A DNA stretch of 64,000 nucleotides from an uncultured virus (IMG/VR IMGVR_UViG_3300017747_003095) (IMGVR_UViG_3300017747_003095), one strand, 5' to 3'; positions 5,529 to 48,205 are shown, counted from the stretch's first letter. The notes: generated by a model from the letters alone, not told the origin. Numbers and translations: made by a program.

Positions 5529-5542
5529 ACTAATTAGGTTTG

Positions 5543-5615
5543 TGACTAGAGGTGGGCTCGAACCACCGACGCATGAGTTAGACCCTCACCGCTCTACCAA
5601 CTGAGCTACCTAGCC
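5543..5615 (-). tRNA. Atypical tRNA, nominal anticodon TCT (Arg)
   Basis: GGCTAGG-TA-GCTC-AGTTGGTA-GAGC-G-GTGAG-GGTCTAA-CTCAT-GCGTC-GGTGG-TTCGAGC-CCACC-TCTAGTC-A; full cloverleaf, but G at position 33 and no encoded CCA. Confidence 0.8.
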
Positions 5616-8256: not shown

Positions 8257-8522
8257 TGTTTCGAAACTAAGATTACTACTACTTTGTAAATTCTGCCCGT
8301 CTCGTCCAGAATACTTCTGGTGATGCATACGTAGGAAGGGTTGTACTTCCTGCGCCATTGGACAAGGGCTGCTGAGATGTTCCTAGAGGTGCGCTTGTTG
8401 AACGCCTTGCCCTCGGGAAAGAACTCTATCGAGTCACCTACCTTTTCTAAGGAGGAGAAGTTATACTTGCTCGGTCTCCCTAGAGTACTCTTCTTCTCTG
8501 ATTTTTCTGATGTTTGGTTCAT
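8253..8522 (-). CDS. Putative small DNA-binding phage protein
   Basis: GRPSKYNFSSLEKVGDS motif common in phage proteins. Confidence 0.5.
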   Translation of the reverse strand: MNQTSEKSEKKSTLGRPSKYNFSSLEKVGDSIEFFPEGKAFNKRTSRNISAALVQWRRKYNPSYVCITRSILDETGRIYKVVVILVSKQ

Positions 8523-9201
8523 AGCTGAGTATTCTTGAGATTGTTGTGGATTTGAATTCTGAATTTGATTTGGTGCGAACACCTGATCCGTTGAGTGAGT
8601 CTGCGATGTCTGCTAGGGTTCTGCCTTGTGCCCTTTGTGAGAACACGTCCCTAACAACAGCGAACTCTTTGCTGCACTGCAATAAGTTGTCACCGTCGTT
8701 ACAGATCCATCCGTATGGGATAATCCCGTTCTTCCGGTAAGTATCCTTCAGGTGTCGCTTGACATCCCTAGTGCGTTCTGAGATTTGATTGCGCTCAAAC
8801 TCAGCAAACATTACTAGCGTTTGAAAAAATAGCCAACCGACAGAAGTAATAGTGTTGAGTGAGTTTCCGCCCATGACAACAATGAACAGAGGTATCTCTT
8901 GGGTGTTCCAATTCTTTACCGTCACTAACGCATCAATAGAGTTACGGAACATCCTATCAACCTTGATGGAAACGACACCGACCTCCTTGCCTTGGCTCTT
9001 CATGACAGCCAGCTCCTTGAGTAGCTTAGCGCCCTGAGGTCTCCTTCCGATCTCCTTGTATGCGGACACATCCTCGTCAGCGAACACTGCACCCATCGTG
9101 TAATCGTTTTGGGTGCAGTATCTTTTTATCGTAGCGAGTTGCATCTCCATAGAGTTCTCCTGATCGTCAGTAGAGACCCTGATGTATGGGAGGATGATCA
9201 T
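8461..9201 (-). CDS. Serine recombinase (resolvase catalytic domain + short recombinase domain)
   Basis: YIRVSTDDQ (catalytic Ser), DEDVSA, RRPQ, VDRMFRN, AEFERNQISER, PYGW. Confidence 0.92.
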   Translation of the reverse strand: MIILPYIRVSTDDQENSMEMQLATIKRYCTQNDYTMGAVFADEDVSAYKEIGRRPQGAKLLKELAVMKSQGKEVGVVSIKVDRMFRNSIDALVTVKNWNTQEIPLFIVVMGGNSLNTITSVGWLFFQTLVMFAEFERNQISERTRDVKRHLKDTYRKNGIIPYGWICNDGDNLLQCSKEFAVVRDVFSQRAQGRTLADIADSLNGSGVRTKSNSEFKSTTISRILSYEPNIRKIREEEYSRETEQV

Positions 9202-10826: not shown

Positions 10827-11240
10827 TTATGGTCTTGCCTGAGCTATTTCGTACTGTTTCTTGATCTTATTCGCCATGTACTGCTCTAGTTCGTCATGCC
10901 ATTCGCCATCCCATTGACGGGCTTGGTTGGTTCGTTCGAACTCTGTGGTAAACTCTTGCGCTGCCTGCCATTTGCTTCCCATCCCATCGAAGAGGTTGAT
11001 ATCCTCCTCCATCAAGGCTTTGTCTTCCGCCCGTTCGATGGCAGCGGCGATCTCGTAGTGGGACTCGAGGTAGCACTCGAAGCCTTCGATGTCAGCCTTG
11101 CCCCATATGGCGTCCTTGTGCTTGCCTTCGTCTTCTAGCTTGGCGAAGTATGCGGATGCGTCTGATTGGCTCAGGAATAAGCGCATGGATATCATTGCGC
11201 CAGTGTTTGGATTGTTGAGGATGATTACGTGTGCCTTCAT
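10827..11240 (-). CDS. Hypothetical early protein
   Basis: ATGA coupled to upstream ORF. Confidence 0.6.
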   Translation of the reverse strand: MKAHVIILNNPNTGAMISMRLFLSQSDASAYFAKLEDEGKHKDAIWGKADIEGFECYLESHYEIAAAIERAEDKALMEEDINLFDGMGSKWQAAQEFTTEFERTNQARQWDGEWHDELEQYMANKIKKQYEIAQARP

Positions 11241-11458
11241 GATGTCTGTAGGTTTTCTTTTTCTGATTCTATTTCGGTATCTATTGCGAACCATATCTGC
11301 TCCATTGTTGCAGGGTTTGTTAGTGCGCCATTGAGGATGTCTTGCGCTGTCTCAGGGTCACAAGTGAACCTGCTGTACACATCATCGATGTGCCATAGGT
11401 TGTCTACAAAGAACCCTGCGTCTCGCAAGGTGGCTTTAGCTTTTTCAATTTCATTCAT
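11237..11458 (-). CDS. Hypothetical early protein
   Basis: LRDAGFFVDNLWHIDDV...AQDIL motif. Confidence 0.6.
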   Translation of the reverse strand: MNEIEKAKATLRDAGFFVDNLWHIDDVYSRFTCDPETAQDILNGALTNPATMEQIWFAIDTEIESEKENLQTS

Positions 11459-11481
11459 TGGTCTTAGAATATGGGTTAGTT

Positions 11482-11844
11482 TTATTTTATGATCCAATGT
11501 AATCTACCTTCCTGCACTTCGAAGGTCTCGTCGCTTTCGTCCCAATCAAGGAACAGCTGAACGCCTCCCCTAATATCTTCCTCAGAAAAGGCGAACGGAA
11601 GAATTACTGAGTGTATGAACTCTCCGCTCACGACGTCGGAATGAAAGTATTCAGCCCTGAGCAAGTCGAAAATCTTTTCCTTGTCTCCAATCGGCTCATA
11701 AGAATCTGCTCTTATGAACTCTAGGTCAAACTTTTCAAGGCTAGTCTCTTCGGCTATCCTGATTGCTTCATTTTCGCTCTCTGCTTCGACCTCTATCACA
11801 CATCTGTATGTGGCGTAGCACTGTATTGCGATTTTCTTTTTCAT
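11482..11844 (-). CDS. Hypothetical early protein
   Basis: IEVEAESENEAIRIA motif frequent in small phage early proteins. Confidence 0.6.
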   Translation of the reverse strand: MKKKIAIQCYATYRCVIEVEAESENEAIRIAEETSLEKFDLEFIRADSYEPIGDKEKIFDLLRAEYFHSDVVSGEFIHSVILPFAFSEEDIRGGVQLFLDWDESDETFEVQEGRLHWIIK

Positions 11845-11855
11845 GATGATTTGGG

Positions 11856-12209
11856 TTATGGGTTTAGGGTTTCAATGGATCTATCGATTGATAGGATCAG
11901 TTCTCTTGGGATGCTGTGTTCGAACTCACAGTCTAGATCCGAGTGCTCGTAGTGGTCAGGTGTGTCTCTATCGCCTTGGATCTTGTGCTCGATCACGCTG
12001 CCGTTTACGAGCATAGATATGCGCAAGTAACCTCTCTGATGTAGTACAGATAGGTCAGTGTACTTCAGGTCAGGAAACCACTTGTCGAAGATGGTCTCTA
12101 GGAATAGCTGATCTACGTCTTCACTTGGGACTTGATTTAGTTCTTTGGGGACAGCAGCTAGGATATCAACCCTAGCTGTGATGGCGATTGGTTTTGGCTT
12201 GTTTCTCAT
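11856..12209 (-). CDS. Hypothetical early protein
   Basis: 117-aa ORF. Confidence 0.6.
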   Translation of the reverse strand: MRNKPKPIAITARVDILAAVPKELNQVPSEDVDQLFLETIFDKWFPDLKYTDLSVLHQRGYLRISMLVNGSVIEHKIQGDRDTPDHYEHSDLDCEFEHSIPRELILSIDRSIETLNP

Positions 12210-12234
12210 TTGGAGATGGTTGATTAAGTTTGGC

Positions 12235-12295
12235 TCAGGCAGAGGGGCTCGAACCCTCGAACGAGCATGTGCCCGTTTGCGCCTTGCTTACCCGA
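12235..12295 (-). ncRNA. tRNA-like element copy A (acceptor-like stem + T-arm, no D-stem or anticodon loop)
   Basis: TCGGGTA-AGCAAGGCGCA-AACGGGCA-CA-TGCTCGTT-C-GAGGG-TTCGAGC-CCCTC-TGCCTGA. Confidence 0.7.
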
Positions 12296-12301
12296 TGCGT
12301 G

Positions 12302-13261
12302 TTATGCCATCACAAAGGATGGTTCGTTGATCCAAGACAGTAACTGCTTGTATGCCCTCTCGTTGGTCTCAGCATCGCTGCCGAACATCAGGCTGTAGTC
12401 CTTGTCACGGGTGTTCGATGTGTGGTTAGTGTAACGGGTCACCGCATTGAACAGTGCCCATAGGGTCTCACCTTGCTCATCGATCGACTTGTCGATGTCC
12501 GCAGCGAATGCAGCCATGTTGTTCTTGGTCTTGCTGCTCACGTCCGCAGCGGATGTGGTGATGCTCTTCCCGAACACACTCGATACGATATCAGCGATGT
12601 GCTGACGTTCGAACCTGCGTGTACTGGCGATCTCGAATACCTGCATCTGATTGTCCTCGAACGTGAGCACCTTGCGCAGGGATGCTACTGCCTCATCGAT
12701 GCGCTGCTGCATTGAGGATGTGTGTCTGATCTTGCTCACGTCACGATTGGCGATGGCGAATGTGTTAGCGCAGCAGATCACCTGATTGGTCGTGCCGAAG
12801 CCGAGGGACATGCTCCCATCATGGCTGTTGGTCAGGGTGATGAAGCGATTGATACCGCTCTTGCCGATGTGCAGTTGAGGTAGCTCCATCTGAACGAACA
12901 CCCGAGATCCGCCTCGTAGTGACCCTCCGCCCATGTTCCCGAACGACCCGAGGGTCTCGGAATTGTTCCATGGGTGAATTAGTTCTAGGTCTGTGCTGAA
13001 GACCTCCTTTCCGGCATCGTATGCGATGCTCACCATCTCGCTGTTCTGTAGGTGCTCGTAACGTGACCCTACGATGCCGAGGTACGCATTCGAATCGCTG
13101 CGGATGGATGCGTATGAATCGGGCACTACGAGCAGGTCATCCGCTGCCGTGTTCACGTACATCTTTTCTTTGGTCACAGTCCAATTGAGACCCGTTGCCT
13201 GAAGGATTTCGAAAATGATTTCTTCTCTTGTCATGTTGTTGTTTGTTGATGCTGTGTTCAT
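12302..13261 (-). CDS. DUF932/DUF945 phage/plasmid-like protein
   Basis: GLNWTV, LGIVGSRYEHLQN, GSLRGGSRVF, NSHDGS, VICCANT, IRHT, TLWALFNAVTRY. Confidence 0.85.
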   Translation of the reverse strand: MNTASTNNNMTREEIIFEILQATGLNWTVTKEKMYVNTAADDLLVVPDSYASIRSDSNAYLGIVGSRYEHLQNSEMVSIAYDAGKEVFSTDLELIHPWNNSETLGSFGNMGGGSLRGGSRVFVQMELPQLHIGKSGINRFITLTNSHDGSMSLGFGTTNQVICCANTFAIANRDVSKIRHTSSMQQRIDEAVASLRKVLTFEDNQMQVFEIASTRRFERQHIADIVSSVFGKSITTSAADVSSKTKNNMAAFAADIDKSIDEQGETLWALFNAVTRYTNHTSNTRDKDYSLMFGSDAETNERAYKQLLSWINEPSFVMA

Positions 13262-13269
13262 GATTGAAT

Positions 13270-13308
13270 GTGCGTGTAGAGTCGCACCCCTCGGTCTTGT
13301 GTGGGTTA
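13270..13308 (-). repeat. 39-bp intergenic cassette repeat R1
   Basis: TAACCCACACAAGACCGAGGGGTGCGACTCTACACGCAC; begins with upstream stop, 8 nt before ATG 13261. Confidence 0.95.
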
Positions 13309-13848
13309 AGAAATGAATTTGTTGTATTGTTCCTCTGTGATCTCTGTGTATCCCGACCAACCATCGAACTCACTAAGCAATGTGGTTGGCGAATCTGTGA
13401 TTGGATCGTAGGCACACACAGAGAAGTCACCACTCTTTTTTATCTTATTGATAGCCTTGTCAATGTTAGAACTGTCATGATAAACCTCACACGCATCATA
13501 CCCGAATAGAAAGTATTGCATCTGTTTTTTGCGGTCATCAACAATTTGAATTAGCTTGATAAGACAAGCTAGTTCGTCCTCATGATTGGCAATCACAGTG
13601 TGCAGTTCGTACTTCTCTCGAAAGAATCTAAATGCTTGTGAGAATGTAGGTGCTGTTACTGTCTTAGGAGCGTAAGAATTATCAATGAGGTGCTCATCTG
13701 AATTGATCCGTGAGGATGCTGTATATGCAGCCCATAGGAACTTATTGTCGTCCTTCTCTGCTGCTGAATATAATGCCACGCATGGCTCTTTAAATCCTAG
13801 CCTTTTGAGTATTAATGATTGCTCGTATGGCACAAAGTCTTTTTGCAT
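13306..13848 (-). CDS. Hypothetical protein, YFLFG-domain paralogue 1
   Basis: C-terminal YFLFG...AYDP...LL..F.GW...EITEEQY shared with two neighbours. Confidence 0.75.
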   Translation of the reverse strand: MQKDFVPYEQSLILKRLGFKEPCVALYSAAEKDDNKFLWAAYTASSRINSDEHLIDNSYAPKTVTAPTFSQAFRFFREKYELHTVIANHEDELACLIKLIQIVDDRKKQMQYFLFGYDACEVYHDSSNIDKAINKIKKSGDFSVCAYDPITDSPTTLLSEFDGWSGYTEITEEQYNKFIS

Positions 13849-13856
13849 GATGAAAC

Positions 13857-13895
13857 GTGCGTATAGAGTCGCACCCCTCGGTCTTGTGTGGGTTA
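13857..13895 (-). repeat. 39-bp intergenic cassette repeat R2
   Basis: One transition vs R1 (loop); 8 nt before ATG 13848. Confidence 0.95.
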
Positions 13896-13898
13896 AAA

Positions 13899-14054
13899 TT
13901 AGTGTGATGAAAGGTCATTTAGGGCATCGATCTCAGCCTCTTCTAGGTAGATCCTGAAGCCATTACTTAGGACGATATAGTCAAAGCCTATATCGATTAT
14001 TCTCTTGTTTATGAGAACCTCTTTTGTCTGTTCTGATATGCCTGATGCGCTCAT
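13899..14054 (-). CDS. Small hypothetical protein
   Basis: MSASGISEQTKEVL...; fills gap between paralogue 2 and R2. Confidence 0.55.
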   Translation of the reverse strand: MSASGISEQTKEVLINKRIIDIGFDYIVLSNGFRIYLEEAEIDALNDLSSH

Positions 14055-14058
14055 GCTC

Positions 14059-14466
14059 TTAAGACTTGAATTTGTAGTATTGTTCTTCGGTGATCTCTGT
14101 GTGTAAAAACCATGCACCAAATGCAGATAGCAATTGGTTTGGAGTTGATGTCATCGGATTGTAAGCAAACACTTTGAAGTTGGCATCTCTTTTTATCTTA
14201 TCGATTGCTTGGTCTATGCTAATCGTGCCATTGTAAAGATCGGACGGCTCATAGCCAAAGAGAAAATATTTCGTATCCCTTTTGTAATGGTCAAAGAAGT
14301 CGATCATGCATGCGTACTCACCCTTGTCTTGCTTAGAGAACGCTGACTTGTCATATGCATCGTAAAGGCTTTGGTCGACATCAAACTGTCGGTCGTACTC
14401 TAGCTTACTAGGCAGGATCTCTACTCTGAGCTGAACGAATAGGTAAAATGAATATGTGTTTGACAT
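14059..14466 (-). CDS. Hypothetical protein, YFLFG-domain paralogue 2
   Basis: YFLFG...AYNP...LLSAFGAW..TEITEEQY. Confidence 0.75.
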   Translation of the reverse strand: MSNTYSFYLFVQLRVEILPSKLEYDRQFDVDQSLYDAYDKSAFSKQDKGEYACMIDFFDHYKRDTKYFLFGYEPSDLYNGTISIDQAIDKIKRDANFKVFAYNPMTSTPNQLLSAFGAWFLHTEITEEQYYKFKS

Positions 14467-14473
14467 TGTGAAT

Positions 14474-14512
14474 GTGCGTGTAGAGTCGCACCCCTCGGTC
14501 TTGTGTGGGTTA
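14474..14512 (-). repeat. 39-bp intergenic cassette repeat R3
   Basis: Identical to R1; contains upstream TAA, 7 nt before ATG 14466. Confidence 0.95.
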
Positions 14513-14824
14513 GATATTGTTGTATACTTTTAGTTCTCCGCTTTCTTCTAGCTCTTTTCTGATCGTGTATCTCCACGTTGAAAGTTCGCTGTACCTGCCA
14601 TCTTCAAAGTAGTAGTTCAGGTCTAGTATGTCCAATTCGGATAGGTTTGGTTGGAGTCCATATCTCCTGAAGAACCAATCGTTAAATTCAGCGACATCGA
14701 ACCTATCGATGAAGTCGATGTAACATGGCTCTTCTTCAGAGTCCTTATCGAATTGCAAGATCGCTCCGGTGGCTGTATCTATCTCTACGACACCCCACGA
14801 TGATATTAATCTTGTTGTATCCAT
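14510..14824 (-). CDS. Hypothetical acidic early protein
   Basis: MDTTRLISSWG...; lies exactly between R4 and R3. Confidence 0.7.
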   Translation of the reverse strand: MDTTRLISSWGVVEIDTATGAILQFDKDSEEEPCYIDFIDRFDVAEFNDWFFRRYGLQPNLSELDILDLNYYFEDGRYSELSTWRYTIRKELEESGELKVYNNI

Positions 14825-14831
14825 GGTAAGT

Positions 14832-14870
14832 GTGCGTATGGAGTCGCACCCCTCGGTCTTGTATGGGTTA
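14832..14870 (-). repeat. 39-bp intergenic cassette repeat R4
   Basis: Three transitions vs R1, none in stem; 7 nt before ATG 14824. Confidence 0.95.
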
Positions 14871-14871
14871 G

Positions 14872-15120
14872 TTATTTTGATGTGAATGCTACGATGCCCT
14901 TCATGGCTTCTGTGTCGATGTCGATCTCTTCCATGACCATCCCCTCGATGCCTAGCTCTTGTTGAGCCTTCTCGAGAGCCATGTCCCATTCATCGGAAAA
15001 GTCATCAGCGGTTATCTTTGGGACTTCCTTCCTGAAGTCGACAAAGTTAGACTTGAGTTTGTCCCAAAGCATATCCGCTCCCGTCTCAGTCTTAGCTACG
15101 ATTTGAAAGTATGTGCTCAT
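14872..15120 (-). CDS. Hypothetical acidic protein
   Basis: 82-aa ORF. Confidence 0.65.
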   Translation of the reverse strand: MSTYFQIVAKTETGADMLWDKLKSNFVDFRKEVPKITADDFSDEWDMALEKAQQELGIEGMVMEEIDIDTEAMKGIVAFTSK

Positions 15121-15121
15121 C

Positions 15122-15508
15122 CTATTTCTTTTTAAGTTCGTAATACTCTTCTTTGAAGATCTTGCAGTAGTCTGCCCATCCGCTGAATTTCTCTAGCAAT
15201 GTTTCGGGAGGGTCTACAATCGGATTGTATGCGAAGACAGCGTGAGATTTCTTGCTTATCTCTTGCAGATAGCAAGAAAGCCCTTCTCTGTGCTCATAAG
15301 CCTGAACAGCGAGCTCACCGAATAGGAAGTAGGTGATCCCATTCTTCACATGGGTCAGGAATTCCTCCATGCTGTGGGGTGACTTGAGCCATGCCTGATA
15401 GAGCGATTTGTCGATGCCGTACTGGGCGTTTGCCTCACGTTCGGCAGGGATCATCTTGTTGCGTAGGTCTACGAAAATGTAGAATTGATATTCTGAGTTA
15501 GAGTTCAT
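15122..15508 (-). CDS. Hypothetical protein, YFLFG-domain paralogue 3
   Basis: YFLFG...AYNP...LLEKFSGW; N-terminus similar to paralogue 2. Confidence 0.75.
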   Translation of the reverse strand: MNSNSEYQFYIFVDLRNKMIPAEREANAQYGIDKSLYQAWLKSPHSMEEFLTHVKNGITYFLFGELAVQAYEHREGLSCYLQEISKKSHAVFAYNPIVDPPETLLEKFSGWADYCKIFKEEYYELKKK

Positions 15509-15514
15509 GTGGAT

Positions 15515-15553
15515 GTGCGTGTAGAGTCGCACCCCTCGGTCTTGTATGGGTTA
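15515..15553 (-). repeat. 39-bp intergenic cassette repeat R5
   Basis: One transition vs R1; 6 nt before ATG 15508. Confidence 0.95.
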
Positions 15554-15573
15554 GTATGGGTTTCTTTGCACTA

Positions 15574-15858
15574 TCATCGGGTCACATATTCCCTCTTCGG
15601 AATGTTCCAAATGGATGGGATCGGCATCTCGATCTTGTAGTCGAGGGATGTCTCAAGGTCAGCTAACACTAGCTGTGCTGCTGTCCAATCGGATGGTATC
15701 ATGCTGCGCTCGATCGGGAGCACAGACTCAACTGTGCTCACTTGCCGGAGATAACGAACAGCCAAGATCACCTTGGTCTGTTCGTATGGCACAGCGATCG
15801 TAGGTCTGATCCTCTCGTAGGTCACACCTACAATCGATCTCTCGTTATATGCTCCCAT
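15574..15858 (-). CDS. Hypothetical protein
   Basis: 94-aa ORF. Confidence 0.6.
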   Translation of the reverse strand: MGAYNERSIVGVTYERIRPTIAVPYEQTKVILAVRYLRQVSTVESVLPIERSMIPSDWTAAQLVLADLETSLDYKIEMPIPSIWNIPKREYVTR

Positions 15859-15861
15859 GGG

Positions 15862-16032
15862 TTAGAATCTGATCTTTGAGCCCTTGGTGATGGATGTGTA
15901 CTTGCCCTGCTTCTTGCCGTGATTGGTACAGATACCTCCGCATCCGTGAGAAGATACGCAAGAGGAAAGCATAGAGATTAAGAGAACCAAGGCAACTAAT
16001 GCCTTCAGGATCATGAATGAGTTATTTTTCAT
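15862..16032 (-). CDS. Small predicted lipoprotein (not in ORF track)
   Basis: MKNNSFMILKALVALVLLISMLSS-CVSSHGCGGICTNHGKKQGK...; hydrophobic core + LSSC lipobox. Confidence 0.65.
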   Translation of the reverse strand: MKNNSFMILKALVALVLLISMLSSCVSSHGCGGICTNHGKKQGKYTSITKGSKIRF

Positions 16033-16061
16033 CGCTCGATGTGTTTTGGGATTGGGTTATG

Positions 16062-16337
16062 TTAAACTGCTGCCTTAACTAAGACAGATAATACTTGCAT
16101 GTGTAATTCGTACGGAAGATTGCCTTCCTTGGAGACCTTCAACAAGGTCTCGAATAGGTCAGGTGCTGATGCGATCAACTTTGCATTGGCATCGAATTCC
16201 TCGTAGTTAGGGATATGATGACCCCATCCTGCTACATGACAGATCCGTCTTACTGTAGCTGTATTATTGTCTTCAGCGATTACTGATAAGCTATCGAGGT
16301 CTCCTTCGACCTTCCATGTTCCTTTGGTGATGTTCAT
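16062..16337 (-). CDS. Conserved small phage protein (T-x-G-x-W ... ANAxLIAxAPDL family)
   Basis: TKGTWKV...ANAKLIASAPDLFETL. Confidence 0.75.
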   Translation of the reverse strand: MNITKGTWKVEGDLDSLSVIAEDNNTATVRRICHVAGWGHHIPNYEEFDANAKLIASAPDLFETLLKVSKEGNLPYELHMQVLSVLVKAAV

Positions 16338-16340
16338 GAC

Positions 16341-16775
16341 TCTATGAATTTGGGGTGAATTATTGAATGATTAAATCCTCAAGAATTGATTTGTAAAAAG
16401 GTCGAGATTCTTTATCGCTCTCAATGGCTTGACCGAGGTCACGAACTAGCATTCGGTGAGCATCGATGTAATCACCGAAGCACTCGTCTTGTATCTCATG
16501 CCATGACCCGTTAGAATCAAAGAACATGAGGATGGATAAAGCCTGCTTGAATTTTAGCTCTTCTGCCGTTACTTTTCTTAGGTTCATAGGTGTGCCACCC
16601 AATGCCCAATCGAAAATGTAACCATGGGGTTCTAATGCAGCCTCTAAGTGAAGGCATGAATCATAATCATTCTCTGCATCTAGGAATGATTCAACTAATG
16701 CCCGAACATTATCGGGCAGGAGGATTGTTGAATTGAATAAATCTTGCATGATCTATGAATTTGGGGTGAATTATT
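16341..16775 (-). repeat. Pair of 24-bp identical intergenic direct repeats flanking one gene
   Basis: TCTATGAATTTGGGGTGAATTATT at 16341-16364 and 16752-16775. Confidence 0.9.
16360..16749 (-). CDS. Hypothetical early protein
   Basis: MQDLF...LLPDNVRAL...GYIFDWALGG.P.NLR. Confidence 0.7.
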   Translation of the reverse strand: MQDLFNSTILLPDNVRALVESFLDAENDYDSCLHLEAALEPHGYIFDWALGGTPMNLRKVTAEELKFKQALSILMFFDSNGSWHEIQDECFGDYIDAHRMLVRDLGQAIESDKESRPFYKSILEDLIIQ

Positions 16776-16914
16776 TAAGATTGAAGAAGTACATTGTGGT
16801 ATCTCCTGAGAACGATACATTGAATTTGAACCTGCTACCATCCTCGTATTGGATGGCGCAGATCTCTCTGTTGGTTCGTGATTCGATCAGTCGGATGGCT
16901 TGAGCTAGGTTCAT
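16771..16914 (-). CDS. Small hypothetical protein (47 aa)
   Basis: MNLAQAIRLIES...IQYEDGSRFKFN; stop lies within 24-bp repeat. Confidence 0.55.
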   Translation of the reverse strand: MNLAQAIRLIESRTNREICAIQYEDGSRFKFNVSFSGDTTMYFFNLK

Positions 16915-16918
16915 GTCT

Positions 16919-17089
16919 CTATGAGTTAGGGGTTTCTTTAGGGGTGATGATATCGTATCCTACTACCTTCACATTCTTGCGATATAGGAAGTTCACGTAA
17001 TTGTCGAGATGTCTCTCGTCATTGAATGCTTTGACAAGTACATCGTACTTGCCATTTAGCTTACTGATCAGGATCTGTGCTTGGATCAT
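16919..17089 (-). CDS. Small hypothetical protein (56 aa)
   Basis: MIQAQILISKLNGK...FNDERHLDNYV. Confidence 0.55.
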   Translation of the reverse strand: MIQAQILISKLNGKYDVLVKAFNDERHLDNYVNFLYRKNVKVVGYDIITPKETPNS

Positions 17090-17262
17090 GGGTTAATTAT
17101 TTGGATGTTGTGTTGTGCGTGAATTCTGATGCCTCTCCAACTTTCGACCTTGACTCTGTTGTTGGATGTAAAGCCTACGATGACTCCTCTGTAGACATCT
17201 ACGAAGTAGCCATTCTTGGTGATTGTGGCAAGTACTTTCTGCCCGATTTCTAATTTTTCCAT
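17086..17262 (-). CDS. Small SH3/KOW-like protein
   Basis: MEKLEIGQKVL...GVIVGFT...VKV. Confidence 0.55.
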   Translation of the reverse strand: MEKLEIGQKVLATITKNGYFVDVYRGVIVGFTSNNRVKVESWRGIRIHAQHNIQIINP

Positions 17263-17281
17263 CTGTCTGTAGGTTAGGTAT

Positions 17282-17461
17282 TTATATTGGCTCAATAACA
17301 CTAAAAGATACCCAGCCTCCTCTCCAAATTTGAGAGCAATAACTAATTTGCGCTCTATTTTTTTTAGCGTCAATTGCTATAATGAAACCTACTCTACCTA
17401 CTACATTGCGACCTTTTACTCTTACTACTTGTAATCCGATTGTTGCGTCTTGAATGTTCAT
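17282..17461 (-). CDS. Small SH3-like protein (59 aa, not in ORF track)
   Basis: MNIQDATIGLQVVRVKG..VVGRVGFIIAID..KNRAQI. Confidence 0.55.
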   Translation of the reverse strand: MNIQDATIGLQVVRVKGRNVVGRVGFIIAIDAKKNRAQISYCSQIWRGGWVSFSVIEPI

Positions 17462-17493
17462 CTTTTTTGTTTTCTTGAATTTGAGTTTATAAA

Positions 17494-18177
17494 TTAAGAT
17501 ACCACGAAGCCCGTGGTATCTTTTCTTGCTTTGCCTTTTGCCTTCAGCCCTAGGATGCCTCCCTGAATGTCTAGCATCAGGTCATCTCTGCTGTCCCCAT
17601 CGTATACCTTGAAACCATTCCATGTCTCAGGAAGTTCGTTGAATACCACAGCAGCGATCCCGCCATTGTTCAGGTGAGATAGCACATCGCTCTCGTTTAC
17701 TTCCGATCTAGACAAGGTCACCACATATCGGTGACCTGATGCTAGGATGCGCTCTCCTGCCTTCGATGGGATCTTTGTGTAGTCATAGAAGACAATGTTG
17801 CTTTCGATGTGGCGCATCGTACCAACAGCCCATTCTACGATCTTGATGTCGGATGTCCCATTCAAGCGGATCGCAATCTCTTGTCCGGCATTCTTCTTTG
17901 CATAGGCATTCATCTCATCGATGATCTGATTAGTGAACATGCTTCGGTCAGATAGCATCGCCTCAGTACGTTTGATACGGGCATTCGCAACATTCGCAAA
18001 TGCACCACGACCTGCGGTGAATAGACATGCAGCCACACATCCTGCGGATGCCTTCGGGCACAAGTTGATCCCTTTGCTATTCTGTGTGAACGGCGCAAGG
18101 TATAGGATGAAAGATTTGCGATTGTTCTTCGCTGTCTTAGCGTTTGTTGATCCGTCTGATAAGAATTTGGTCTTCAT
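17494..18177 (-). CDS. GP88-family phage protein
   Basis: LYLAP...NLCP.AS.GC..ACL..AGRG, RLNGTSD, FYDYTK, DGD..D, GLKAKG. Confidence 0.8.
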   Translation of the reverse strand: MKTKFLSDGSTNAKTAKNNRKSFILYLAPFTQNSKGINLCPKASAGCVAACLFTAGRGAFANVANARIKRTEAMLSDRSMFTNQIIDEMNAYAKKNAGQEIAIRLNGTSDIKIVEWAVGTMRHIESNIVFYDYTKIPSKAGERILASGHRYVVTLSRSEVNESDVLSHLNNGGIAAVVFNELPETWNGFKVYDGDSRDDLMLDIQGGILGLKAKGKARKDTTGFVVS

Positions 18178-18814: not shown

Positions 18815-18830
18815 GGTTTCTAAGATTTAG

Positions 18831-18887
18831 TGAGAGCAGAGGGACTCGAACCCTCGATGTATATACATTGCGCCTTGCTTACTCTCA
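18831..18887 (-). ncRNA. tRNA-like element copy B
   Basis: TGAGAGTA-AGCAAGGCGCA-ATGTA-TA-TACAT-C-GAGGG-TTCGAGT-CCCTC-TGCTCTCA. Confidence 0.7.
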
Positions 18888-18894
18888 TCGTGTG

Positions 18895-19238
18895 ATTTTT
18901 ACATGCATCATTAACAACACAGCATGTCTATTTATTGGATATGACCCCTTCCCTTTTAGAGCCCAATTGCCAAGCATTTCTGCCATCGGTTAAGAGCTAA
19001 CCCCATAAATCTTTAATTCACTTGGAGTCCATCGTTTACATTGCTTGCTTATGATTGCACTGCGAATGGCATCACTACTGAGGATGCATCGGCTGATTTA
19101 ACAGCATGCGTTAGAGTCGCATCCCTCTGCTGTCTGAATCAACTCTGTAGCATGCTGTCATCACGACATGAGCTACAAGGAAGAGACGAAACAAACAAGT
19201 AAAGAACGAGTGCCCTGATGAGTGACTCATCGTTTGGA
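18895..19238 (-). ncRNA. Candidate long structured leader/ncRNA of early transcript
   Basis: No ORF of 60 aa or more; several hairpins (GGTTA/TAACC, GCA-GAAA-TGC, ACATGC/GCATGT, TGTAGC/GCTACA, TGATTCA-GACAGC...GCTGT-TAAATCA). Confidence 0.45.
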
Positions 19239-19243
19239 CAGCA

Positions 19244-19274
19244 CGAAAGTACAACCATTTATTGGATTAGCAAA
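19244..19274 (-). promoter_or_regulatory. Main leftward early promoter (Bacteroidota -33/-7)
   Basis: TTTG-N19-TACTTTCG, near consensus TTTG-N19-TAnnTTTG. Confidence 0.65.
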
Positions 19275-19598
19275 TAAAATAAAACGTAGTGATACCAAGG
19301 GTTACAGAGGACTGACCCTTGTAAGCTATTGTTTATCAGTACTTTACGAAGGTGTAAAATAATGAAAAATAAATTAGTCGAAAATGTAACTACCTGATTA
19401 TCAATACCATTATTTTCATCTAGCTTATTTTAGCCTATTTTATTTGCTTATACATATATATGCTAAAGGAGATGACGTATTTCTAGTCATATGACGAGTT
19501 TATTGTCATCGTCAATTTAGTCGTTTTAAAGCGATTTAAGCGACTTTAGGGTCAAAATGAGGGTGTAGTATCACCCATGCCGAGATCGTCGATTTGCC

Positions 19599-42909: not shown

Positions 42910-43592
42910 AAAGAAGCATAGCTACGCCAGTAAGTATTAGATCCGTAATCGCCTCTGCAAAGCAGCAGTTGAGAATTGCTAACACTAGTGAGCATGATCT
43001 TATGCTCTACAGGCTAGCAGACGAAGCCTTAGGCCAAGTCGGGTCGCTTGATACGTTTGTAAAACAGACAGAGTGCTTTGAAATTGAAAACTATATGTTT
43101 GAACTTCCTAATGGATTTGTGAGACCTATCGCGATCCGATTAGAAGGTGAAAACACAATGAACACAGGCGCTACCGTAACGTACTTTAACCAAGAATTCT
43201 TGCGTCAATGCCAGTGTGACGACCCTGAGTTCAGGAACTATTCTGACCTCCAGGCTACCGGGCAGATCGTTAACGGTCATTGGATGTTCAACACAGATAT
43301 CAAGGCAACAAAAGCCGTGATGACATACCTTTCAAGAAACCTTGACGAGGACTGCATGATGATCATGTACGAGCATCAGGAAAGAGCTGTTAGGTCATAC
43401 ATAAGCTGGAACTTCTCTAGGACGTACTATGAATTGTATCCTCCAAACATATCTGAGTCATATCGTCAAGAGTGGATGGCACAGAGGAGATTCTTAATAG
43501 GAGAAGCGTATCAGAGGGATTATCTAAACAATAGAACCCAGATTGGATCTATTTACAGCGCTCTTGTTAATAATCAAAACTTCGCCATCTAA
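42906..43592 (+). CDS. Tail ring/tubular protein
   Basis: FELPNGF...Y.S..LDED..M pattern; precedes muzzle gene. Confidence 0.55.
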   Translation: MKRSIATPVSIRSVIASAKQQLRIANTSEHDLMLYRLADEALGQVGSLDTFVKQTECFEIENYMFELPNGFVRPIAIRLEGENTMNTGATVTYFNQEFLRQCQCDDPEFRNYSDLQATGQIVNGHWMFNTDIKATKAVMTYLSRNLDEDCMMIMYEHQERAVRSYISWNFSRTYYELYPPNISESYRQEWMAQRRFLIGEAYQRDYLNNRTQIGSIYSALVNNQNFAI

Positions 43593-46500
43593 TGCCATCA
43601 GTACAACTACGTAGCTTCGGAGGGTTAAACACAGATAGTCACATCCAGGACATTCGAAACGGGGACTATCCAGACGCCAAGAACATAGACCACGTTTCTA
43701 TTTCTGACGGGCAGTCAATGGCCGTCACTCCTAGACTAGGTAACGAGTATGCGTTTGATTTAGGAGAAGTATTGCCACAGAACAAAGTTTATGTAATCAC
43801 GTTTCCAACGACACTTTCCGGCACTAGGATACTACAGTTCTACGATTCATCAGGAACAGCGCCTTTGCTAGACGGATCACCCAATGGAGTTATCGTTAAT
43901 GGGCCATCTAGTGTAGTGGCTCAGATACAGAATGCATTTAACGCCAATACGAATCCACCGCTATCTGTTATAGTAGAACCGGCTTCGCTGCTTTACCCTA
44001 GCAATACAAATCCTAATGCATTTGCGATCTACGCAGACCCAAATAGCCAGTATCTGCAATACTACGATTTCATACTAAGAAACATTGGAACAGATCCTAT
44101 TGATGTTGTTACAATGGCTGAGGCTATCTCTCCTTCTAGAGCCGGAGAGCTAGAGGTTATTGGAAGCTACGATTTGCTAGGTGATCTTTTCGTGATATCA
44201 TCACCCAAAAGAGAGAAGCCGATAGAGATAAGTATCGTAGCGGCTCAAACATATCTTTCTGGCGTTGTTTATAACCTTGGTGTCATTGGAGATGTTTCAA
44301 TATCAGTATATCAAGAGGTTTTTGTCTCTGGCGTAGAAGGAGCACCATGGGCAAATGGTATATTTATTGTTTCTTCTGTTTTTGTAGACCCTTCCACAGG
44401 AATAGCATTAATAGAAGTTATAAACCCAGTAGCTCCACCAGCAATAGGCGTTTCAGTATTAAATACAGGAACTTTTACTCTTAATCCATACGGACTAGGA
44501 GAGATCGGCGTTGCTGTAAAGGATTTGTCAAAAGATCAGTGGACATACACTAGACTCTTAAGGTCTAAGGAGCTAGGACTAACTATTTACAATCAATGTG
44601 ACGTTCAAGGTGATATTTCATCTGGAGGCAAATCAATTTATTTTGTAGATGGATCGACGCCGAAATTTTTCACATACAATCAAAAAGCTCCATACGTTTT
44701 AGATGGCGCCATAAAGGTTTTGAATCCTGAGTTTGGGACATATTCTTATGGTAACATAGCCGAGCAGACAAGGCAAATCCAGGGCAGGCCTTCGTTCGAT
44801 ATAAACTTTATTGAGCAGCCTCAGTCTGGAGGAAATCTTTACTCTGGAAATCACAGATATTTTGCTAGAGGTGTACTTGCGGATGGTGCTAGAACAGACT
44901 GGTCGCTTCCTTCTAACGAGATTCCTGTATTTGCTTCTAATACAACCCAGGCAGCAGTCAGGATAAAAGGAGATATAGAAGGAACGCAAACCGGAAAGGT
45001 TAACATCATCTCTATCTCAAACATTAACCCTGACCTATATAAATTCATAGAAGTTGCTTGTATCAACTACCTACAAGATGGTATAGATACCACAATTTAT
45101 GGAATATTCGCTAAGGTTTTAACTCAAAGCGGAGTTACTTCGATTCAACTAACCCACACAGGTAGAGAAGAAGGCCAAGATCTGATACCAGACGAGCTGA
45201 GTGTTGAAACGATTATTTACACAACGGCCAAAAACAATGAGATCGTAGATAATAGATATCTGCTTTCAAACCTATCTACTCCACCTCAAGAGGATATAGA
45301 AAAACTGCTATCCCAGGCAAAATACTCTATCAAGAAAAAGGAGATATCCCGAGCCGGTCAGTACCCTGCGTTCACGTTTGGTTCTTACCAAGATCCTGCG
45401 AATGTGTTCTACAATAAAGGATACATGATCAATGAAACATATCGGATCGCTGCTAGGGTAAGATTTGTGAATGGATTTACATCAGACATTTACAAGCTGT
45501 TTGATGTAACCATAAACACCGACGGGCCTAGCTCTAGCCACCCAGGCAGAATCGCAGGACTAGATTCTTATGACCTAAATACGTTTGCTCCATTTCCAGA
45601 CAAAAACCTACTGGTTCCATATATTGAAATCTCTGGAATTGACATACAGAACACGCTTATCCTAGGAGTTCCCGCCTCTACGATTATAGAGAGGGTTGAG
45701 TTCTTTCGCGCAGAGGTTGATACTAAAACAATTCTAGGCTGGGCTTTGTGTGTCCCGCAGGTACAGTGTAAGTTTACGAATGATGGAAACGACTTTAACT
45801 CCACGCCACCATTTTGGTGTGCAAATGCTGGAGTAAACAATGTAGGAATTCGCATGACAAATGTTCTTGCAAACGCCTTGCAACCAGTCCCAGAATCTTC
45901 ATCTGTAGACGGGGTTGCGGTCTTGAGTTACGATTTCCCGTTTATTTCTGGAGTAGAGGCAACTGTTGGTGCAATATCTGCTGAACCAGGGAGTCCGATA
46001 TCATTTCCAACAGAACTAGGAATACCTCTTAATCTACGTTATTACGACGACAGATATACACTTGGAAGCCCAGAAATGCTAGACGAGGCAAATGGATACA
46101 AGTGGAACGATTTGTATTATGGTGCTTATTTCATGGATGATCTAATATCTGGAGCCAATTCTGAAATCAAAGCAAACGACACTGTAATAAACTTTGGACA
46201 ACAAGACTTTGAAGCGCAACAGCTAGACGCTACCGTTGTGCCAAAAAATTTTTACAGGCCATATATGTTTATGCTAACCTCTGACCCAGAGCAAGTTCCG
46301 GTGTCATTTTCAAGGCTAGTTAACCTAGATGAAACCGTTCTTTTTGAGGGCGCTTATGTCACTAAAGCATACGGACTGTTCCCCTCGGCTGCAACTCCAG
46401 CGTTTGCAAATAGACCTGGCTACGTTCTAAAGACAAGCCAAAAGCTAAATTCCTTAACAGGGAATATTGATTTTGGCGCAAGACTCTGCCAAATAAAAAG

Positions 46501-48205
46501 ACCTACAACATCTCAGTATTCTACCACAGGGCAAGATAGATATATTTATCTAGGAGCATACCAAAGCCTAGAAACAGGATCTATCGTACCTTTGTTTGGA
46601 GGAGATACATTCACTAGCGAGGTTCGATACAGGCATCTTGTAAAAACAAAAGCATCAACTTCTGCGGTCTATACAGGCGGACTTCAGCAAGGTGTTTCAT
46701 TTGTAACTCAAACTAGAGTTAATCCATACATGGTCTATAAACAAGAGGACGTCCCTCTATGGCCTAGCGACTTTGAATCTCAAGGAGAAGCAAATCTTCT
46801 CGATGACTGGTTTAAGAACCTAGAGCTAGATCAGTATTTTTACAATAATGGATACAGCCCTCAGCTCATTGCTGGATACAGAATCGGTGCAGATCCTGAG
46901 GGATCTTCTGCAACCTTTGAAACAAGGATCATTTACTCCGACCTAAAGATTCAGGGGTCTAGGGTAAATAACTACAGGAGATTTGGGCTGTTGTCATACA
47001 CAGATCTAGATCCGTCGTTTGGAGCAATCATTGACATGAAGAACGTCAACGGTGAGCTCTTCACGCTACAGCCAAATAAATACCAAAGGCAGTTCTTCAA
47101 CACTCGCGGTACGCTGCAGCTCAGCGACTCAAGTCAAATCGTTCTAGGCGATGCTAGTGTACTATCTAGGCCAGGAGTCACTATCACTAGCTTCGGATGT
47201 TCCGACAAGTGGTCAGTAAGGAAAGGGCGAAGCCAAGGCGGGGACGATGTGCTGTACTGGTATGATAAACTCAGAAAGAAATTTATCAGGTTCGGATCTG
47301 ATGGGGCCGTTCCGCTCTCAGATCGGGCACAAATCAGAACACTAGCCTCTAACGGCTTTAAGTGGCTACTTAACAATAATACTCCAGCTCTAGACTACGG
47401 AATTCATGGGGTGTGGAACCAGCTACTTTCGGAGGTTACATGGACCTGTCGTGCACATAAAAAGCCAGACCTAGAGTGGTCGTTAGGTGCTGATATACAG
47501 CAAGGTGAGATAGTTTACTTGAGTGACGAGATTAACTTCATAAACTTTGAGCAGACTACCGTTCTTTATGTAGCCCTACAGACTCACGTAGCGACTAATG
47601 AAACCAAGCCAGGTCAAGGGGTTGATTGGCAGTCATACTTCTCAAGGCCTGATACTAGTAATCAAGATTACTATAGCATTCGAACAATCTCATTCTCTGA
47701 GCTAAAGAATAGATTCATAGCTAGAGACGAAGAGCCGCATCCTAGGATTTATCTTCAATGGAACGACACATACCTAAGCCCAAGGCCAGTTGGATCTCTG
47801 AGTAAAGTGTATGAACACAACTCTGGCTCTTATCTGAAATGGTATGAGCTTAATGGAGATTCTCAGACAGGCGAGGGTTATATCGATGTTGTTTTCAATA
47901 TCGATCCAAACACCGTTAAGAGATTCATATCAGTGATCTGTAATAGCGAGATCCAACCTACTAGAGTCGAGTTATTCACCAAGAGTCAACAGACGGTTAT
48001 CACAACTGTAGAGTTCGAGGATCAGCTAGAGCAATTTGTGGCGCCGATTCCTAACCAGCTTTTGTCCGGGCAGACTACGCTTGACAATGATTTTATGTAC
48101 GGTCAGTGGGTTAAGATCAGGTTCTTTTATAGCCCTGAGCAGTTTCAGCGACTAACAAATATTGTCCTGAAGTTTAATCCAATGGCTAGACTTTGGAACT
48201 CATAA
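43592..48205 (+). CDS. Tail stabilisation/muzzle protein (P22 gp10-/crAss-like)
   Basis: N-terminal FGGLNTD...YPDAKNI; later FGGDTF, RIIYSD, FGAI, FGCSDKWS, YWYD motifs; 1537 aa. Confidence 0.75.
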   Translation: MPSVQLRSFGGLNTDSHIQDIRNGDYPDAKNIDHVSISDGQSMAVTPRLGNEYAFDLGEVLPQNKVYVITFPTTLSGTRILQFYDSSGTAPLLDGSPNGVIVNGPSSVVAQIQNAFNANTNPPLSVIVEPASLLYPSNTNPNAFAIYADPNSQYLQYYDFILRNIGTDPIDVVTMAEAISPSRAGELEVIGSYDLLGDLFVISSPKREKPIEISIVAAQTYLSGVVYNLGVIGDVSISVYQEVFVSGVEGAPWANGIFIVSSVFVDPSTGIALIEVINPVAPPAIGVSVLNTGTFTLNPYGLGEIGVAVKDLSKDQWTYTRLLRSKELGLTIYNQCDVQGDISSGGKSIYFVDGSTPKFFTYNQKAPYVLDGAIKVLNPEFGTYSYGNIAEQTRQIQGRPSFDINFIEQPQSGGNLYSGNHRYFARGVLADGARTDWSLPSNEIPVFASNTTQAAVRIKGDIEGTQTGKVNIISISNINPDLYKFIEVACINYLQDGIDTTIYGIFAKVLTQSGVTSIQLTHTGREEGQDLIPDELSVETIIYTTAKNNEIVDNRYLLSNLSTPPQEDIEKLLSQAKYSIKKKEISRAGQYPAFTFGSYQDPANVFYNKGYMINETYRIAARVRFVNGFTSDIYKLFDVTINTDGPSSSHPGRIAGLDSYDLNTFAPFPDKNLLVPYIEISGIDIQNTLILGVPASTIIERVEFFRAEVDTKTILGWALCVPQVQCKFTNDGNDFNSTPPFWCANAGVNNVGIRMTNVLANALQPVPESSSVDGVAVLSYDFPFISGVEATVGAISAEPGSPISFPTELGIPLNLRYYDDRYTLGSPEMLDEANGYKWNDLYYGAYFMDDLISGANSEIKANDTVINFGQQDFEAQQLDATVVPKNFYRPYMFMLTSDPEQVPVSFSRLVNLDETVLFEGAYVTKAYGLFPSAATPAFANRPGYVLKTSQKLNSLTGNIDFGARLCQIKRPTTSQYSTTGQDRYIYLGAYQSLETGSIVPLFGGDTFTSEVRYRHLVKTKASTSAVYTGGLQQGVSFVTQTRVNPYMVYKQEDVPLWPSDFESQGEANLLDDWFKNLELDQYFYNNGYSPQLIAGYRIGADPEGSSATFETRIIYSDLKIQGSRVNNYRRFGLLSYTDLDPSFGAIIDMKNVNGELFTLQPNKYQRQFFNTRGTLQLSDSSQIVLGDASVLSRPGVTITSFGCSDKWSVRKGRSQGGDDVLYWYDKLRKKFIRFGSDGAVPLSDRAQIRTLASNGFKWLLNNNTPALDYGIHGVWNQLLSEVTWTCRAHKKPDLEWSLGADIQQGEIVYLSDEINFINFEQTTVLYVALQTHVATNETKPGQGVDWQSYFSRPDTSNQDYYSIRTISFSELKNRFIARDEEPHPRIYLQWNDTYLSPRPVGSLSKVYEHNSGSYLKWYELNGDSQTGEGYIDVVFNIDPNTVKRFISVICNSEIQPTRVELFTKSQQTVITTVEFEDQLEQFVAPIPNQLLSGQTTLDNDFMYGQWVKIRFFYSPEQFQRLTNIVLKFNPMARLWNS

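Follow-up and report, generated by a model that had tools for sequence, protein, structure and literature searches.

A compact predicted RNA pseudoknot at cistron boundaries in the accessory-gene array of an uncultured phage, with relatives in unrelated phages

The subject of this analysis is a 39-nucleotide (nt) repeat in a 64,000-nt stretch of DNA from an uncultured virus (IMG/VR IMGVR_UViG_3300017747_003095); the whole stretch, at its full length, is referred to here as the window. The original prediction, made from the sequence alone, described an array of gene cassettes delimited by a stop-hairpin-start repeat, and proposed that the array was integron-like or driven by recombination, or else a regulon bound by one phage protein. 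As a cassette array the feature is ordinary; it is remarkable as a member of an RNA motif that is found in phages across bacterial phyla and that has apparently not been described so far. The best reading of the comparative sequence evidence is that the repeat would be a cis-acting element of messenger RNA (mRNA) at cistron boundaries, copied along with duplicated genes.

A degenerate 39-mer has five exact matches in the window, all on the minus strand, and none in 100 dinucleotide-preserving shuffles. Run unfiltered over both strands of the whole window, a covariance model derived from related sequences recovers the same five copies (R1 to R5) at E-values of about 1e-8 and adds a sixth, divergent copy, the next best match having an E-value of 2.8. 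The copies are listed below, where S1 and S2 are the two stems, L1 and L3 are loops, aa stands for amino acids and ORF for open reading frame.

13270..13308, minus strand: repeat R1, found with the degenerate 39-mer and the covariance model; ATG of the DUF932 gene 8 nt on; composed of TAA (13308-13306), a CA-rich spacer, S1 5' arm GAG (13292-13290), L1 GG, S2 5' arm GUGCG (13287-13283), A, S1 3' arm CUC (13281-13279), L3 UACA and S2 3' arm CGCAC (13274-13270)
13857..13895, minus strand: repeat R2, L3 UAUA; starts 3 nt past the stop of the 51-aa ORF 13899-14054; ATG of the 180-aa paralog 8 nt on
14474..14512, minus strand: repeat R3, same sequence as R1; opens with the TAA that ends ORF 14510-14824; 7 nt on, ATG of the 135-aa paralog
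14832..14870, minus strand: repeat R4, L3 CAUA; starts 1 nt past the stop of ORF 14872-15120; ATG of the 104-aa ORF 7 nt on
15515..15553, minus strand: repeat R5; starts 20 nt past the TGA of ORF 15574-15858; ATG of the 128-aa paralog 6 nt on
19102..19135, minus strand: sixth, divergent copy from the covariance model (E 3.2e-5), reading A-GAG GG AUGCG A CUC-U AA CGCAU

The genes that make up the array are as follows.

12302..13261, minus strand: gene after R1, 319 aa, DUF932 (PF06067, 1.4e-29, profile scan)
13306..13848, minus strand: gene after R2, 180 aa; paralogous in its C-terminal half to the 135-aa (44/103 identical) and 128-aa (27/69) genes
13899..14054, minus strand: 51-aa ORF without a preceding repeat; homolog in the metagenome relatives L133/L134, 61% over 46 aa (tblastx)
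14059..14466, minus strand: gene after R3, the 135-aa paralog
14510..14824, minus strand: gene after R4, 104 aa, no family match in PHROGs and Pfam scans
14872..15120, minus strand: 82-aa ORF without a preceding repeat
15122..15508, minus strand: gene after R5, the 128-aa paralog, 45/133 identical to the 135-aa gene

The five copies are 36–39/39 identical pairwise, and they differ by transitions only, confined to the 5' spacer (position 8, C/T) or to the loop between CTC and CGCAC, the GTGCG/CGCAC stem being constant. Successive repeats are spaced 587, 617, 358 and 683 nt apart, the gap from repeat to ATG is 8, 8, 7, 7 and 6 nt for R1 to R5, and R1 opens with the TAA that terminates ORF 13306-13848. 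The description in the original prediction was accurate on each of these points, namely the five positions (13270, 13857, 14474, 14832 and 15515), the 6–8 nt ahead of an ATG, the use of the TAA of R1 and R3 as the stop of the upstream gene with R2 and R4 beginning 3 nt and 1 nt after one, the units of 358–683 base pairs (bp), and the constant stem with transitions outside it. Its statement that the repeat lacks a TAnnTTTG promoter is borne out, as the 39-mer contains no TTTG, and the standard signal that it assigned to each cassette was found in that each unit has one strongly constrained signal ahead of its gene. Of the five genes with a repeat before them, three are paralogs, with a mutual identity of 34–43% in aa and 54–63% in nt (226/417 and 187/297 nt identical); set against the 36–39/39 identity of the repeats, this means that the leader remained constant while the genes diverged. 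A blastn search of the 4.1-kb array against GenBank phages gave no match.

On comparison with other sequences, the motif core is common to phages of unrelated lineages and hosts and is not private to the window phage. An exact scan of IMG/VR with the 14-mer GAGGGGTGCGACTC returned at least 120 stretches; among the fetched loci, 98 of 122 matches have CGCA(C/T) 2–9 nt downstream, giving at least 98 IMG/VR phage loci, and the other 24 look like chance, two CRISPR arrays among them. Variants of the motif are carried by phi92-like coliphages (122 records listed, phi92 itself examined) and by cluster-B-type mycobacteriophages (329 Mycobacterium records listed; Oline, Serendipitous and Qyrzula examined), and a metagenome scan with an 18-mer yielded relatives of the window's own lineage with AAGACC before the motif. 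The phi92-type motif was not found in 5,426 complete E. coli genomes. The hosts of the carrier phages would thereby span Enterobacteria, Actinobacteria and, judging by the promoter and leader style of the window, Bacteroidota.

Other phages usually have 1–3 copies. Record G001 holds two, G004 and G005 hold three each, and G002 and G003 hold one each plus one chance-looking match with two mismatches. G005, at 66.6 kb with terminal repeats, has its three copies in a leftward operon and encodes a 4260-aa ORF; a tblastn search of 46 window proteins against G005 and the 122 loci gave five weak matches only, none in G005, so that this ORF is not detectably related to the 4270-aa ORF of the window. 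G006, a 33.8-kb genome called complete by CheckV with a longest ORF of 756 aa, has one copy between exonuclease and SSB/replication genes. Rfam 15 reported only tRNA over the whole window at gathering scores, nothing on the repeats in 13200-15620 at E up to 10, and only tRNAs and chance matches in seven other loci at E up to 1. Within the parts of the literature reached by sequence strings and words, no description of the motif was found.

Two further observations concern the search results. In L074 and L102 (IMG/VR), CRISPR-like arrays have a repeat that ends in CGAGGGGTGCGAC, equal to 13 nt of the 5' half of the motif, with CGCAC upstream such that the motif helix is present in permuted order; the likeness may be chance among G+C-rich hairpins. 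In L035, L002, L042 and L115 (IMG/VR), the knot is followed immediately by a stable UUCG- or CUAG-looped hairpin, a G+C-rich stretch and a gene of about 250 aa; a larger structured leader may include the knot in these loci, which form one lineage.

Two crossing, covarying helices show that the motif corresponds to a compact predicted H-type RNA pseudoknot of 23–30 nt. Its layout begins with the 5' arm of S1 (3–5 bp, covarying), GG, the 5' arm of S2, (G/A)(U/C)GCG, a single nt and the 3' arm of S1, followed by a loop of 3–8 nt mostly ending in AA (YAYA or YAA in the lineage of the window, where S1 has 3 bp) and the 3' arm of S2, CGC(A/G)(C/U); the S2 5' arm therefore sits in the S1 loop and pairs with the downstream pentamer. 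The pair flanking GAG/CUC in 77 distinct rows is CG in 44, UA in 9, AU in 6, GC in 6, UG in 2 and unpaired or other in 10. The covariation score of S1 is 0.129 against 0.069 in shuffles, with 0/500 reaching it, and slid-partner controls give at most 0.066. A fifth S1 pair in G004 and G005 alternates between C-G and G-C, and in the mycobacteriophages S1 is CCGG/CCGG instead of NGAG/CUCN' while the GG, GUGCG, CCAA loop and CGCAC are unchanged.

For S2, matches to the 5' half were collected without requiring a partner. AUGCG is paired with CGCAU in 4/4 cases (the sixth window copy, where G-C is replaced by A-U on both sides; the second copy of the relative L131; G004; and G005), and GCGCG with CGCGC in 2/2 (the third copy of Serendipitous, and Qyrzula). 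GUGCG has CGCAC as its partner in 95 cases, CGCAU in 10 and CGCGC in 6; a further 33 have no partner, all in loci fetched for the exact search string, and these are chance-looking and mostly G+C-rich. G·U wobbles are confined to the sense strand; as the other strand would hold A-C mismatches at these positions, selection appears to act on the fold of the sense strand, in the simplest case as RNA. Among other RNA classes considered, a self-cleaving ribozyme, a preQ1 or other riboswitch and a tRNA-like element were set aside as having no Rfam support.

The motif always lies outside ORFs, co-oriented with them, in the untranslated gaps of co-directional operons. In 82 of 89 distinct IMG/VR contexts a co-directional ORF ends upstream, 52 at 6–7 nt and 69 at 6–10 nt before GAG with one nearer (4 nt); the stops are TAA in 72, TAG in 7 and TGA in 3. 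A co-directional start follows 5–110 nt downstream in 86/89. Mycobacteriophage copies lie 5–8 nt past a stop and are followed by a G-poor spacer, a Shine-Dalgarno (SD) sequence and an ATG, and in the lineage of the window the distance from knot to ATG is 6–8 nt in 12/12 distinct metagenome relatives and 5/5 window copies, or 17/17. As ribosome footprints indicate, a ribosome on a stop codon reaches downstream mRNA. The sharp lower bound on the stop-to-knot distance would then correspond to the reach of the terminating ribosome, with selection to keep the knot untranslated and folded. In L165 (the same locus as L001), TAA triplets 7 or 8 nt apart lie upstream of both copies (e.g. TAACAACTAACAACTAAGACC) and close each of the three reading frames immediately ahead of the knot, an arrangement that fits a need to bar ribosomes of any frame from it. 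A site for RNase E, in the form of an AUU immediately following the knot, was considered and dropped, as only the +1 purine is general and the UU is missing in the mycobacteriophage and window-lineage copies.

This placement is also what the main rival explanation draws upon, in which the knot, through its mechanical stability, would punctuate the message by blocking exoribonucleases or shielding processed ends from an end-dependent endonuclease, so that after cleavage of the early message each cistron keeps a guarded 3' end (the upstream gene) or 5' end (the downstream gene), in the manner of repetitive extragenic palindromic (REP) or terminator hairpins, the RNase III sites of phage T7 or viral exoribonuclease-resistant RNAs (xrRNAs). 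A knot that is tight to the upstream stop and loose to the next start in most lineages would behave as a 3' cap, leaving no naked RNA between ribosome and knot, and such a role suits contexts where the next gene is a tRNA (L084, L119) and the phi92 knot that follows a tRNA array. It leaves unexplained the strict 6–8-nt spacing to the AUG in the window lineage, and E. coli, the host of the phi92 group, is not known to have a 5'-to-3' exoribonuclease. The plant-virus xrRNAs are likewise loop-to-downstream pseudoknots in intergenic positions 5–20 nt before a start codon, but at 23–30 nt the phage knot is far smaller than the printed xrRNA constructs and has no sequence in common with them (PMC6299227, as far as the constructs printed there go). 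End protection is on balance considered unlikely.

Conservation within the knot raises another alternative, that of an operator bound by a phage or host protein or by a small ligand, as in a mini-riboswitch, which would switch translation or termination of the neighbouring genes together. L1 (GG), S2 and the AA end of L3 are very strongly conserved while S1 varies, which is typical of a recognised surface, and the knot lies within the 30S footprint of five window genes. However, clustering of 1023 ORFs within 3 kb of 99 motif loci revealed no partner protein shared across lineages, the largest cluster reaching 21/99 loci; the phages that carry the knot come from three host phyla, the Rfam riboswitch models give no match at E up to 10, and a riboswitch would not usually stand five times in succession ahead of unrelated small genes. 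An operator is accordingly judged distinctly improbable as a general explanation; for the window phage alone, the originally suggested regulon bound by one phage protein is a possible candidate.

Relatives of the window phage show that the region is a variable accessory-gene array, as read from their gene content. L131, a close relative with 76–86% nt identity in the flanking coding sequence, has two copies, of which one carries the compensated AUGCG/CGCAU. Comparison of L131 4-460 with window 13306-14512 shows one paralog in place of the 135-aa gene, the 51-aa ORF, R2 and the 180-aa gene; this paralog is chimeric, its 5' part resembling the 135-aa gene and its 3' part the 180-aa gene, so that the junction lies inside paralogous coding sequence and not at a repeat. 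Such an arrangement is as expected from unequal recombination between paralogs that deleted the 51-aa ORF and R2. L131 also lacks the window genes at 11482-12209; L143/L145 and L133/L159 have several window genes in common with two copies and different neighbours, and L129/L130, related by the DUF932 protein (71% identity), has no motif. Logan contigs from four freshwater-metagenome DNA runs over 11000-17500 end at repeats (e.g. 13297, 13893, 14833 and 15555) and include no joint between two repeats, but De Bruijn contigs cannot span a 39-nt repeat and are uninformative on excision or deletion. A look-up of RNA runs containing the region returned none.

The claim of an accessory-gene array shuffled at its repeats is thus upheld in part: the array is variable and the relatives L131, L143/L145 and L133/L159 hold two copies with other genes, whereas a recombination site at the repeats is not borne out, the sole resolved junction (L131) being elsewhere. 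Repeats serving as crossover points of an integron-like or promoter-early stem-loop (PeSL)-like cassette system could account for the variation among relatives in copy number and adjoining genes and for one IMG/VR lineage in which a hypervariable upstream gene is followed by a conserved motif, beginning exactly at the TAA of that gene, and a conserved downstream gene; any 39-nt repeat also offers homology for recombination as a by-product. Opposed to this are the motif being usually single-copy in other phages, the covariation with sense-strand wobble, which indicates selection on an RNA fold, the position of the L131 junction, and the absence of an integron integrase among the window ORFs in the PHROGs and Pfam scans, the sole recombinase there being of the serine type and 4 kb off. 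Crossover at the repeats is not demonstrable, and such a system is regarded as highly improbable. The integron-like nature originally inferred is not supported, given a structured core that unrelated phages share in 1–3 copies with RNA-type covariation, no tyrosine integrase beside the array and the L131 junction in coding sequence. The serine recombinase, 246 aa at 8461-9201 (minus strand) with Resolvase (PF00239) and Recombinase domains, belongs to the early operon; inversion, resolution or integration are possible roles.

The phage that surrounds the array was characterised by PHROGs and Pfam scans of its ORFs, which identify a terminase, a portal, an endolysin and a primase-helicase. A 1537-aa protein at 43592-48205 is a homolog of the crAss muzzle (PF25731, 1.8e-37), and after it, at 50456-63268, comes an ORF of 4270 aa that has LPD23 and DUF6782 metallopeptidase-like domains. 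This probably encodes the cargo that a crAss-like phage ejects, or its virion polymerase, but no polymerase domain was identified in it. Genes diverge from about 20650, and the leftward early-type operon, made up of small and mostly uncharacterised genes, contains all six copies. An SD-like motif precedes only 5/69 window genes, and TAnnTTTG, the Bacteroidota promoter element, precedes many rightward genes and nearly none in the leftward early operon; scarce SD motifs together with TAnnTTTG are, on the sequence pattern, a Bacteroidota promoter and leader style. TAnnTTTG stands about 10–25 nt before the starts of the genes at 1545, 10505 (minus strand), 23897, 29354, 30218, 32533, 35850, 41396 and 48239.

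The crAss-like character of the window and the position of all six copies in an operon nearly without TAnnTTTG also lend themselves to a transcription signal, either a single-strand hairpin promoter of the crAss-like virion RNA polymerase or a nut/put-like antitermination RNA. The early promoters of the phi14:2 virion polymerase are given as unknown, the enzyme transcribing denatured DNA (10.1101/2020.03.07.982082). In Oline the motif comes right after the first gene of its operon. Lambda nutR likewise follows the first gene of its operon. The motif is present, however, in G006, which is too small for such a polymerase and has none among the 26 scanned of its 55 ORFs, and the motif-bearing mycobacteriophages and coliphages are not known to use any but the host polymerase. 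The loop is of variable length (3 to 8 nt), the G·U wobbles are on the sense strand, a DNA promoter would not require ORFs to stop short of the motif, and a sigma-70-type scan found no site at the repeats (over the region, 18.5 sites were expected and 14 seen); as antitermination signals, five sites within 2.3 kb would be more than needed. A search of five records with PF25731 gave no match, but the control likewise gave none. A transcription signal is for these reasons held to be very unlikely.

The explanation preferred as a whole, with a probability of roughly 0.45, is a widespread pseudoknot acting in cis as RNA, which in the window would present start codons and was multiplied into an array by duplication. 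The knot would act on the polycistronic message and would have to stay folded; for this reason ORFs would stop at least about 5 nt before it, where a terminating ribosome reaches it and does not unwind it. Since the hosts span phyla and no neighbouring protein is shared, the target would be universally conserved host machinery, or the knot would act by itself. As to mechanism, ribosome docking or start-site presentation appears preferable, with end protection as the main rival. The host of the window phage would not rely on SD pairing, and the 3' edge of the knot, 6–8 nt before the AUG, would occupy the place of the SD/anti-SD helix; it is this coincidence of position and host that favours a role in initiation. 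In the least certain step, a stacked helix of about 8–9 bp, docked on the 30S platform, would present the start codon, giving each accessory gene a self-contained initiation signal independent of what lies upstream. The five-copy array would have arisen by duplication of gene-plus-leader units, the genes then diverging and the leader being kept.

Several observations weigh against this explanation. S1 has only 3 bp in the window variant, the fourth pair being C-U or C-C in all five copies, and RNAfold gives a competing CCC/GGG pairing there; the sixth copy, inside the ORF-free stretch 18815-19598, is neither flanked by an ORF nor followed by a start codon. A tRNA gene begins 3–4 nt after the knot in L084 and L119, and the phi92 knot, without an upstream ORF, comes about 50 nt past the last tRNA of an array and 25 nt before the SD of gp114; in phi92 and the mycobacteriophages it lies 15–45 nt from the AUG with an ordinary SD between. 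A role in initiation leaves these tRNA-adjacent and SD-containing contexts unexplained, and the docking step is not generalisable beyond the window lineage. Most IMG/VR instances, moreover, were found by the exact 14-mer, and the conserved GAG, GG, GUGCG and CUC there are partly so by design. A broader version, considered rather unlikely, is a universal host-directed initiation module whose helix would sit in the SD/anti-SD cleft of the 30S subunit or on protein S1 without pairing to 16S rRNA; it would work across Bacteroidota, Proteobacteria and Actinobacteria, and in hosts without SD pairing would replace the ribosome-binding site outright at 6–8 nt from the AUG. A split SD, in which GAGG is brought near the AUG by an S2 hairpin, was rejected, as S1 is CCGG in the mycobacteriophages.

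Further features of the window lie outside the repeats R1 to R5. In the early operon, about 780 nt at 18815-19598 (minus strand) hold no ORF of at least 40 codons; this stretch begins near the sixth motif copy and ends with the tRNA T-arm-like GAGGGUUCGAGUCCCUC, then UGCUCUC, which can pair with GAGAGUA 24 nt upstream into an armless mini-tRNA-like shape that ARAGORN does not call. The relative L159 matches window 18871-19043 at 85% identity, from which the stretch appears to be conserved as non-coding. A pairing at long range between the sixth copy and the T-arm-like sequence, which lies 250 nt further downstream, is not significant (z-score -1.33). A second repeated leader, unrelated to the pseudoknot, is the 24-nt AATAATTCACCCCAAATTCATAGA at 16338-16361 and 16750-16773 (minus strand), common to the adjacent genes 16062-16337 and 16360-16749, whose start codons it abuts. 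A tRNA-Arg (TCT) is called by ARAGORN and Rfam at 5542-5615 (minus strand).

A near letter-perfect fold of 23–30 nt in phages of at least three bacterial phyla would imply a common target, such as the ribosome, RNA polymerase or an RNase, or alternatively an autonomous property such as extreme mechanical stability; either one would make it a new and very small tool of phage gene expression. Some of the phages with the motif can be grown on laboratory strains, with E. coli K-12 as host for phi92 relatives and M. smegmatis mc2 155 for cluster-B mycobacteriophages, which makes the action of the motif directly testable. For crAss-like phages the motif marks six sites in the early region, and a compact, portable, context-independent element could be of use as an insulator or leader in synthetic operons.

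Several known systems were compared with the motif. An integron attC site is an imperfect palindrome of about 57–141 bp forming one bulged hairpin, with low conservation between sites, whereas the repeat is 39 nt long, nearly identical from copy to copy and built of two crossing helices rather than one long hairpin. Type III toxin-antitoxin loci have head-to-tail tandem RNA repeats beside the gene of an endoribonuclease toxin; here the copies are 358–683 nt apart with genes between, and no toxin family appeared in the PHROGs and Pfam scans, the PADLOC library not having been scanned. Lambdoid nut sites combine a boxA consensus with a boxB hairpin to which an N protein binds; in the motif, a U-rich run AUUCUUUAAAC follows the knot in some lineages and is not general, and the fold is a pseudoknot, not a small hairpin. 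The PeSL cassettes of T4-type phages carry a repeat with a host early promoter before small early or accessory genes; the array resembles them as a short regulatory module repeated before such genes in a variable region, where repeats may aid shuffling, and differs in that its repeat has no promoter (no TTTG, no sigma-70-like site), is shared across families and phyla, and shows RNA-type covariation.

The frameshift knots of luteoviruses and poleroviruses are under 30 nt, with two short stems, a first loop of 2 nt, a single junction nt and an A-rich last loop. The phage motif agrees with this architecture in size class, in stem and loop plan and in a position 5–8 nt downstream of the A-site codon, but places the stop codon of unrelated genes in the A site. 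Unlike -1 frameshift or read-through knots, it has no slippery heptamer, and the codons that precede the stop vary freely from one context to another; a distance of 6, 7 or 8 nt to the ATG gives no consistent frame linking the flanking ORFs, and in-frame read-through of R1 meets a TGA after 15 codons. In the class 3 xrRNA-D of Steckelberg et al. 2018, the apical loop of a hairpin pairs just downstream in an intergenic position near a start codon (PMC6299227). Class 3 xrRNAs have a P1-P2 stem with conserved L1 and L2B loops and a pseudoknot joining L2B to the 3' strand, and they halt a 5'-to-3' exoribonuclease at the base of P1. The phage knot is alike in general topology, in conserved loops with covarying stems and in lying a few nt before a start codon; it is about half as long, without the P1/P2 internal loop or second stem, and bears no sequence likeness to the printed PLRV, MYDV and HuPLV1 constructs (PMC6299227).

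Within phages, two further systems are comparable. The start-associated sequences (SAS) and extended SAS (ESAS) of cluster K mycobacteriophages are short asymmetric repeats just upstream of starts, beside the preceding stop, and the present motif is likewise a short, conserved, asymmetric sequence repeated before starts and next to stops; it belongs to another sequence family and occurs in cluster-B-type phages and far beyond mycobacteriophages, no pseudoknot being described for SAS/ESAS. The translational operator of T4 gene 32 is a 5' H-type pseudoknot that serves as a single-copy autoregulatory site bound by gp32. The motif differs from it in occurring in 1–6 copies before unrelated genes with no shared protein, and is alike in being an H-type pseudoknot followed by an unstructured, G-poor leader to the ribosome-binding site.

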